Source: a virus | Lineage: Duplodnaviria; Heunggongvirae; Uroviricota; Caudoviricetes | DNA length: 22,812 nucleotides | Virus record (IMG/VR): IMGVR_UViG_2563367158_000003 | Direction: 5' to 3' (one strand) | In this document: one piece after another, positions 9,769 through 10,440 of the stretch | How the letters are laid out: every line of letters begins with the position of its first letter | Position numbering within the stretch: the first letter of the stretch is position 1 | Notes under the pieces: generated by a model | Database searches by the model: none | What the model was told of the DNA's origin: nothing | The model's input: the letters and a program-made list of their open reading frames with translations, nothing else | Program-made: the position numbers and the translations under genes

Positions 9769-10440
9769 ATGGCTTTCAGAGCGGAAGAAGCAGCAGCATC
9801 GAATTTCGAAAATGCTTACAGATATCTAGTTCCACAAGGTTCAAATCAGGAGATGCGTTCGAAAGTTAGGGCGAAGCTCAAAGAAATTGTTGAAGAATGT
9901 GGGCCAGTAGTGGATGGGTATCCAGCATGGCATCCTTTTTTGCTGGAAAGAGATAAAGCTATTTGGGCGCCTATGACTCCCAATAATACTCCTAGCTTTA
10001 AATACCTGGACCACACGGTCTATTTCAGGAACGGCATTCTTACCTGTCCTTATGGTCATGGGGTTGATGAATTTATAGCTGGTATAAAACGTCTAAAGCA
10101 CACGGATGCCCATTTCTCTATTGAGAAGATTGATGACGTTGTGCTTTATAATGACAACGCCGTCCCGTTGTTAATAAAATGCCATTGGCTTATTTCGGAA
10201 GATATGGAAGAGGATGGCACCATTCCAGCAAAAGCAGCAATTGGATTGATGCTTGAAAGCGAGGTTCCTAACTGGCGGCATGCAGTTTATTGTGAAAATT
10301 GGGAAGATATGCGCGGGCAGTTGATGGGATATCCGCACGGTGCCAGATCATCTCTATTTGTTAATCAGCAGACAGGACAGAAAATGAAAAACTTCTGGAA
10401 TCAGCTGATTAAGACCGGAATTCTTGGGGAAGAGCGATAA
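9769..10440 (+). CDS. Hypothetical protein (223 aa), AT-rich orphan cargo gene between cos and the portal gene
   Basis: Intact ORF convergent with Q; no recognisable motif. An alternative in-frame ATG at 9853 exists. Composition visibly AT-richer than the neighbouring structural genes. Confidence 0.55.
   Translation: MAFRAEEAAASNFENAYRYLVPQGSNQEMRSKVRAKLKEIVEECGPVVDGYPAWHPFLLERDKAIWAPMTPNNTPSFKYLDHTVYFRNGILTCPYGHGVDEFIAGIKRLKHTDAHFSIEKIDDVVLYNDNAVPLLIKCHWLISEDMEEDGTIPAKAAIGLMLESEVPNWRHAVYCENWEDMRGQLMGYPHGARSSLFVNQQTGQKMKNFWNQLIKTGILGEER

Follow-up and report, generated by a model that had tools for sequence, protein, structure and literature searches.

What is a single gene doing between the cohesive end and the portal gene of a P2-like prophage, where P2 itself has only a short gap? 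The question is raised by a 22,812-nucleotide stretch of viral DNA (IMG/VR record IMGVR_UViG_2563367158_000003; the whole stretch is called the window below), a P2/186-type prophage of Escherichia coli that matches strain KE58 at 97.7% identity over 90% of the query. In the window, a gene for a protein of 223 amino acids (aa) lies between the cohesive-end site, cos, and the homologue of portal gene Q. The original prediction, made from the letters of the sequence, treated the filled interval as an oddity relative to P2 and the gene as an orphan moron, that is, an autonomous unit with its own promoter and terminator. Our comparisons suggest a moron that has been exchanged between genomes, a self-repressed one-gene accessory cassette with a function in conflicts between mobile elements, and we give this reading as a whole a probability of roughly 0.55. 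The linkage of the gene to an operator of its own is new here; the locus and the gene had already been catalogued.

An exchanged cassette next to cos

The interval has the following layout, in positions of the window.

9531-9549: cos, the 19-nt cohesive end GGCGTGGCGGGGATACGAG, aligned to the annotated cosL of P2 and 186
9558-9686: backbone to the right of cos, in common with an empty-slot relative by alignment
~9687-10492, plus strand: swapped-in cassette with operator-like and promoter-like sites, one open reading frame (ORF) and a terminator-like hairpin, delimited by breakpoint alignment against the empty relative
9769-10440, plus strand: gene for the 223-aa protein, ATG start, DNA identical to the E. 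coli gene annotated WP_000885505
10493-11545, minus strand: portal gene, homologue of P2 Q and 186 W, convergent with the cassette; right border of the hotspot, with terminase and late genes beyond

The ORF is present as originally described, and the position proposed for cos is confirmed by alignment with the annotated left cohesive ends of P2 (NC_001895 1-19) and 186 (NC_001317 1-19), with which the first 13 bases and the next GCGCGC are common. The conserved cos block, at about 9408-9557, is kept in 58 phage records and in E. coli relatives. Between cos and the portal stop lie 943 bp in the window, compared with 167 bp in P2, 176 bp in 186 and 159 bp in the empty-slot E. coli relative KCJ3K291, in agreement with the earlier estimate of a gap of ~940 bp that is short in P2. 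The ORF starts 220 bp to the right of cos, and the comparison supports its placement as the first gene at the left end of the packaged DNA. It is also convergent with the late P-Q operon, as had been claimed, the ORF being on the plus strand and the portal gene on the minus strand.

Alignment of the cos-to-portal interval across related prophages, which the original prediction had proposed as a check, shows that the interval is empty or holds other cargo in relatives, and both breakpoints could be mapped. Homology with the empty relative ends at about 9686 and restarts inside the 3' end of the portal gene; the right junction possibly reaches into the last ~14 portal codons, which also vary among relatives. 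E. coli relatives that carry the same HNH-domain gene as the window to the left of cos have either an empty cos-to-portal interval or one with TIR, SEFIR, PIN, AIPR, DUF262, DUF4145 or SieB. The ORF has a G+C content of 42-43%, compared with 50-62% in the portal and terminase genes, so that it is indeed AT-richer than its structural neighbours. Of 5,426 complete E. coli genomes, 24 carry at least part of the 672-bp gene, and 23 of these have a full-length copy that is 100% identical; an identical copy is found in E. coli NC101, ML35 and NGF-1. The whole 9408-11000 stretch in those E. coli genomes matches the window at only ~97.7-97.9%, a difference that fits a recent exchange of the gene. With high confidence, the interval is an autonomous accessory one-gene cassette in the P2 cos-proximal hotspot.

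This hotspot is published. The gpA-gpQ region of P2-like phages has been described as a defence hotspot (Rousset et al. 2022, Cell Host Microbe; PMC9122126), and the 223-aa gene lies within it, between replication gene A and portal gene Q. The protein itself, WP_000885505, is listed in Table S5 of that study as 'hypothetical', beside a KAP NTPase; it was not found in the table of tested systems of PMC9122126, and among the supplements it occurs only in Table S5. A literature search found the accession WP_000885505 in no paper text. The view of the slot as an oddity relative to P2 must therefore be given up. Several new immune systems have already come from the P2-like cos-proximal hotspot, much of whose cargo is still unnamed, and a 2026 follow-up in Nucleic Acids Research (PMC13586616) handles unknowns of this kind as candidate defences. 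As for the moron, that reading is largely right: the gene is absent from close relatives, carries its own promoter-like and terminator-like signals in a swapped segment and is AT-rich. It is not an orphan, as described below, and its slot was already known.

A conserved protein family with a confident model and no known fold relative

The ORF at 9769-10440 is a real gene under purifying selection, with a ratio of nonsynonymous to synonymous substitution rates (dN/dS) of ~0.09 between the window gene and the Klebsiella copy. A lack of conservation and an accumulation of frameshifts had been named as signs that would speak against the moron; instead, the copies are intact except for a single IS30 insertion. 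That copy, in E. coli MS20659 (locus L002, NZ_CP082073, 5001-6900), is cut by IS30 after nucleotide 340 and is the only disrupted one among the 24 E. coli carriers. The same start Met is used in ~240 relatives, with MAFRA(D/E)E among the best-conserved stretches, which places the start at 9769 and not at 9853, settling a choice that the original prediction had raised.

The description of the gene as an orphan is wrong. There are 203 close relatives, nearly all of 219-228 aa, and an exhaustive profile search of 1.84 billion representatives finds relatives in 287 clusters. No match to the 223-aa protein was obtained in Pfam, NCBIfam, PHROGs, PADLOC or the Protein Data Bank (PDB) sequences, by either single-sequence or profile searches. 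The protein is cytoplasmic, with an isoelectric point (pI) of 5.8, and its AlphaFold model is a confident alpha/beta structure (predicted local distance difference test, pLDDT, 92; predicted template modelling score, pTM, 0.88) that matches no PDB fold and no viral fold in BFVD. The proposed check by remote homology and structure prediction thus yielded many relatives and a confident model, without a match to a curated family or fold.

Among 242 members of the family, G45, Y51-P52, W54-H55-P56, D81-H82, W178, G187, P189 and S194-S195 are invariant or nearly so. A candidate functional core would comprise W54-H55-P56, D81-H82 and the G-x-P-x-G-x-R-S-S / N-Q-x-T-G residues. Several more specific assignments were considered and rejected. 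A catalytic cysteine or zinc site does not fit, as Cys93 is replaced in 9% and Cys138 in 18% of members, indicating that neither is essential. An ADP-ribosyltransferase-like R/S-x-S/E-x-E arrangement (FRAD, RSS, ESE) has its motifs in the wrong order and no match to such a fold. A DNA-mimic is disfavoured by the pI of 5.7, far from the ~4 typical of such proteins. The ~100-aa C-terminal extension of the 311-325-aa relatives has no Pfam match, and a fusion partner therefore gives no hint of the function.

An operator that accompanies the gene

Upstream and downstream of the ORF, the following putative transcription signals are found.

9708-9713 and 9731-9736, plus strand: promoter candidate 2, TTGCAA / 17 / TACATT, by eye, 8/12 match
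9719-9740, plus strand: operator-like palindrome GCATGA-N10-TTGTGC, GCATGAAATTGATACATTGTGC, with half-sites at 9719-9724 and 9735-9740, inside the cassette-specific segment
9727-9756, plus strand: promoter candidate 1, TTGATA-18-TATATT, 10/12 match
near 9755-9760: degenerate third operator-like site
10458-10488, plus strand: terminator-like hairpin GCGCCTTTAACAAGCAGAGGCGC (10458-10480) followed by the T-run TGCTTTTTAA
~9637-9662, minus strand: decayed remnant of the portal-operon terminator tQ, intact in P2 and in the empty-slot relative and broken in the window

The original prediction had noted promoter candidate 1 and the hairpin with its T-run, and had missed the conserved operator that overlaps the promoter. 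The consensus of 52 non-redundant copies in the family is ttaCGCATgAAAtt....TTTTATGCGtaA.......aTaTtaTGc. Both half-sites, GCAYNW and WNRTGC, are present in 53 of 70 non-redundant upstream regions, compared with 1.4% of shuffles, at a spacing of exactly 16 nt in 51 of the 53. Three half-sites lie at the fixed offsets 0, +16 and +36, across the -35 and -10 region; the third, 20 nt further on, has a G at +40 in 48/48 copies, a position that was not used for selection. The -35 element of most members falls in the middle of the palindrome, and their -10 element is overlapped by the third site. Within 1.21 Mb of family loci, 70 pairs are found at the gene's own promoter and five elsewhere, where 7.7 would be expected by chance, and the same element is present upstream of the family gene in an independent IMG/VR viral set. 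The whole window contains only two operator-like pairs (0.145 expected by chance). The second of these, ACGCACAATTAACCGAAATCATGCGC at 19333-19354, falls in the first codons of baseplate gene V.

The element also changes with the protein. A distant metagenomic subfamily of ~312 aa, with the N-terminus MEFRxPxA and an extra C-terminal domain, has promoters without the sites of group 1 and with three TACGT(A/G)A sites spaced 17-18 nt apart. The sites of group 1 (GCAYRAAA / TTTYRTGCG) and of group 2 (TACGTRA) are each at background level upstream of the other group. Gene and operator are thus linked, and the sequence of the operator follows the protein subfamily. Since it accompanies the gene, occurs nearly nowhere else nearby and changes with the subfamily, we infer that the protein binds and represses its own promoter; DNA binding and autorepression by the 223-aa protein are, on this comparative evidence, probable. 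As to which part would read the DNA, the best-conserved stretch, G-x-P-H-G-x-R-S-S-L-F-V-N-Q-x-T-G-Q-x-x-K, forms a loop followed by a helix, with a few positions that differ between subfamilies, and it is speculatively the best candidate. A ribbon-helix-helix made of the invariant N-terminus and two helices was also considered; this region is acidic and matches no such family, and the assignment is not claimed.

The operator could alternatively be read by a host protein or another trans-acting factor, the 223-aa protein being an enzyme wired to a host signal. Such an arrangement would account for the mildly acidic character of the protein and for the failure to detect a DNA-binding domain in it, and its conserved His, Asp and Ser residues are more suggestive of an active site than of DNA reading. 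We nevertheless consider it unlikely. The element is found across Proteobacteria, Verrucomicrobiota, Bacteroidota, a cyanobacterium and an actinobacterium, a range in which no single host regulator of such specificity would be expected; no other gene is consistently linked to the operator; and a change of protein subfamily is accompanied by a change of site sequence. The spacing does not appear to fit ArgR, PurR, Cra, Fur, LexA, NrdR or sigma-54, and these sites, together with those of CRP and FNR, the MarA box and the Ogr/Delta site TGT-N12-ACA, presumably all differ from the element in spacing or core.

A protein that reads the operator need not serve its own promoter alone. It could be a dedicated transcription factor that reprograms genes of the host or of rival elements, in lysogenic conversion or silencing, with its own promoter as one target. 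The logic of the operator is the same as for autorepression, and the second full pair at 19333, at the 5' end of gene V, together with the GCATGA-type repeats, which are dense in the cos-left block and kept in part in P2 and 186, would be further targets. Across the 1.21 Mb of family loci, however, extra sites are no commoner than chance, the cos repeats are general to the P2 family and also occur in phages without the gene, and the 175-aa conserved portion that does not bind DNA would need explaining. This is the least probable of the readings considered here.

The conserved block to the left of cos, at 9408-9515, has seven half-site-like motifs in ~100 nt, compared with ~0.7 per 100 nt across the window, among them ACGCATG, CGCATGAAA, CGCATGA, TCATGCA and GTGCATGAAAA, which are similar to the operator half-site GCATGAAA. 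TGCAT repeats are also found at the right ends of P2 and 186, and the cos-left repeats are therefore probably a packaging signal of the phage family, their likeness to the operator half-site being possibly a coincidence.

Promoter candidate 1 exists as described, with 10 of 12 positions matching, yet three matches of this type in 1.4 kb are what shuffled sequence gives (2.0 +/- 1.6), so the match alone proves little; its leader would be only ~5-7 nt, with the Shine-Dalgarno-like GGGG (9760-9763) at the transcript start. Candidate 2 is weaker, would have a leader of more normal length and follows the layout of the closest P2-type homologues. For the terminator the pattern of stem-loop and T-run fits, as had been proposed, and the folding energy of the hairpin is ordinary (z = -0.65). 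The hairpin has no T-run on the minus strand, and together with the decay of tQ this means that late transcripts may run through the gene; P-Q transcripts probably read antisense through the 223-aa gene.

Distribution of the family and its neighbours

The family is patchy in distribution and, from its pattern of occurrence, appears to have spread horizontally. It was found at 166 loci among 185,579 species genomes, and a set of 2.9 million viral contigs gave 54 matches (53 distinct loci). The main hosts are alpha-, beta- and gamma-proteobacteria, with further members in Verrucomicrobiota, Bacteroidota, one cyanobacterium and one actinobacterium at 40-48% identity. The settings are P2-like and lambdoid prophages, conjugative elements and genomic islands. 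At 23 loci the gene directly adjoins a P2-type portal gene of opposite orientation, with 57-84 bp between the two at 20 of these loci; the gene identity at these loci is 40-100% and the portal identity 61-99%, indicating a long-standing tenant of the slot rather than a one-off. In Serratia marcescens (loci L095-L097; at least 21 contigs), an intact family gene of 63% identity occupies the same slot in a decayed P2-like remnant in which replication gene A, the portal gene and the terminase gene are truncated, and HicB-like and Eco57I-type genes adjoin it. A lambdoid prophage of Klebsiella quasipneumoniae has the family gene with the lysis cassette on one side and the HNH/terminase genes on the other, and on other viral contigs the neighbours are integrases, repressors, endolysins, methylases and terminases. 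Loci in integrative and conjugative elements (ICEs) and islands have ParB-like, DUF932, DUF736, ArdC, ParA and methylase genes and toxin-antitoxin pairs nearby. All-against-all clustering of the four genes on either side at 79 loci revealed no universally linked neighbour, the largest cluster being ParB-like, at 12 ICE-type loci.

Two observations concern individual members. A 4.5-kb contig labelled as a Bacillota metagenome-assembled genome (L014, JAEYLX010000057.1) carries the family gene, a DinI-like gene, a KAP NTPase gene and the portal gene, all with 99-100% protein identity to the E. coli version, together with cos, and its label is most likely due to mis-binning or contamination. At 20 of the 79 loci, in high-G+C hosts (L017, L018, L025, L029, L031 and 15 others), the family gene fails a filter on G+C at third codon positions that the neighbouring genes pass, indicating a composition foreign to those hosts.

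The neighbours at ICE and island loci raise the possibility of an anti-defence or establishment factor, which would help an incoming phage, ICE or plasmid past host immunity, in the manner of genes from the leading region of conjugative elements, rather than protect the lysogen. ParB_N (9), DUF932 (9), DUF736 (6) and ArdC (3 loci, including Brenneria) are found there, as are ParA and methylases that are orphan or ParB-linked. A burst of expression on entry could come from a tightly repressed promoter that is active until the repressor builds up. The P2-type slot, in contrast, otherwise holds TIR, PIN, SieB, AIPR and similar genes, the gene survives undamaged in a remnant of a dead prophage that has lost the ability to infect, and none of the solved anti-defence proteins in the PDB is similar to it in fold. 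We regard an anti-defence role as quite unlikely.

Retention in a decayed prophage would also be expected of an addiction module made of a single protein, either a fused toxin-antitoxin-like protein or a toxic protein held harmless by autorepression, the loss of which is costly. Type II toxin-antitoxin loci typically have an autorepressed promoter, and toxin-antitoxin pairs are often found next to the family gene: HicB in Serratia, TacA with an acetyltransferase in Brenneria, Phd/YoeB in Acinetobacter and a HicB-like gene on a viral contig. No toxin or antitoxin domain can be recognised in the protein, however, and one E. coli genome tolerates the IS30 insertion. Addiction is thus improbable, and as a reading it overlaps with defence and does not exclude it.

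The favoured explanation

The reading to which the estimate of roughly 0.55 applies can be set out as follows. A moron cassette would have entered the cos-proximal hotspot of a P2/186-type E. coli prophage by recombinational exchange, bringing its own promoter, an overlapping three-site operator, one ORF and a terminator. The product, from an uncharacterised family of ~220-aa cytoplasmic proteins that has spread horizontally and has no detectable fold relative, would bind the operator and repress its own promoter, keeping expression in the lysogen low and buffered. Its function in conflict would be to help the lysogen, for instance by excluding other phages or mobile DNA or by defending against them. 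This last part is put forward tentatively, at somewhat less than even odds, and a lysogen-expressed exclusion or defence role is favoured because of the other occupants of the slot, the retention of the gene in a dead prophage and the occasional neighbours from defence islands. A bolder and rather doubtful version is that the gene is a self-repressing one-gene conflict module of a previously unseen fold, a DNA binder whose specificity co-evolves with its operator and which acts on invading DNA. The GCATGA repeats of P2-type cos sites and the operator-like site in a late gene could be examples of its targets, with rival phages, satellites and plasmids being blocked.

Several observations weigh against the explanation. 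None of 5,027 defence models in PADLOC-DB 2.0 matches the protein at E <= 1. Searches for DNA-binding families, folds and motifs, helix-turn-helix and ribbon-helix-helix included, found none in the protein; the family is mildly acidic (median pI 5.7) and its N-terminal region is acidic. The operator copy in the window is degenerate, its right half being GTGC and not ATGC and its third site weak. Known defence genes (pAgo, Thoeris ThsA, Lamassu LmuB, Shango, Mza, DRT and BREX) are within three genes at only ~1/5 of loci, and many non-phage homologues adjoin ParB, DUF932, DUF736, ArdC and orphan methylases, a neighbourhood typical of establishment and anti-defence in conjugative elements. Finally, machine learning scores only 15-32% of unknown P2 proteins as antiviral (PMC13586616).

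The family stands out by its identity of more than 40% across phyla, its confident structure without a known relative, its independence of a partner gene and its conserved, subfamily-specific operator, and by the identical copy present in the well-studied E. coli strains NC101, ML35 and NGF-1. The cassette is a small, clonable unit of 0.8 kb. If active, it would bring a protein fold and a regulatory design that are both new to the conflict systems of mobile elements; if inactive, it would be one more hypothetical moron in a known hotspot.

Cargo to the left of cos and other features of the window

On the other side of cos, the window has the following features.

Upstream of gene A: integrase, then the repressor region
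5506-7920: replication gene A
8201-8506: DinI-like gene
8629-9348, plus strand: HNH-domain cargo gene, 239 aa, phrog_6544 (function unknown), left of cos
9462-9481, plus strand: terminator hairpin GCCCGCCAGAGCTGGCGGGC then TTTTGC, closing the left-of-cos cargo unit, inside the conserved cos block

The hairpin at 9462-9481 is strong (z = -3.5; 0/200 shuffles fold as well) and is kept in all aligned relatives. The gene before it differs between prophages: HNH in the window, a KAP NTPase in the E. coli genomes with the identical 223-aa gene, and others again in Klebsiella and Serratia. The pairing of the HNH gene with the 223-aa gene is found in none of the 5,426 complete E. coli genomes, so the two sides of cos vary independently and the HNH gene is an independent cargo and not a partner of the 223-aa gene. 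A KAP NTPase as a fixed partner is rejected on similar grounds, the window having HNH and Klebsiella, Serratia and most P2-type loci being without KAP. In E. coli ML35 (L001, 20125-20655), an extra minus-strand hypothetical gene lies between the virion-morphogenesis gene and baseplate gene V, where the window has no ORF of comparable size; this position seems to be another variable slot of such prophages. An Rfam scan found no RNA family anywhere in the window.

Comparison with known systems

The cassette resembles the known cargo of the P2 hotspot (old, tin and the systems of PMC9122126) in lying between A and Q by cos, in being variable and AT-rich and in having putative transcription signals of its own. 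It differs from old and tin, which are on the other side of cos, in being on the portal side, and from the systems catalogued in PMC9122126 in that its protein is without any common domain. In phage 186, a close relative, orf97 (NC_001317; L102, 29604-30335) lies between tum and cos and is annotated 'expression from plasmid blocks 186 infection'. It shares with the 223-aa gene the hotspot and the form of a single gene of similar size, and it differs in lying on the left side of cos; the exclusion phenotype belongs to orf97. Homology between the two proteins was considered and rejected (E = 0.25), and orf97 is also unrelated to the HNH protein of the window.

The autoregulated toxin-antitoxin modules of the CapRel(SJ46) type are similar in being encoded by a single prophage gene with promoter-overlapping repeats that suggest self-repression, and toxin-antitoxin pairs are often neighbours of the present family. 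The 223-aa protein differs from them in having no sequence or fold similarity and no recognisable toxin, antitoxin or DNA-binding domain. Morons, as defined for phages of the HK97/lambda type, are units of promoter, gene and terminator. Like these, the cassette is an autonomous unit between two backbone genes, absent from relatives and different in base composition, and the place of the family in lambdoid prophages, with lysis genes on one side and terminase genes on the other, is the classic one for morons. Unlike morons, the same cassette is also carried, together with its operator, by conjugative elements and genomic islands.

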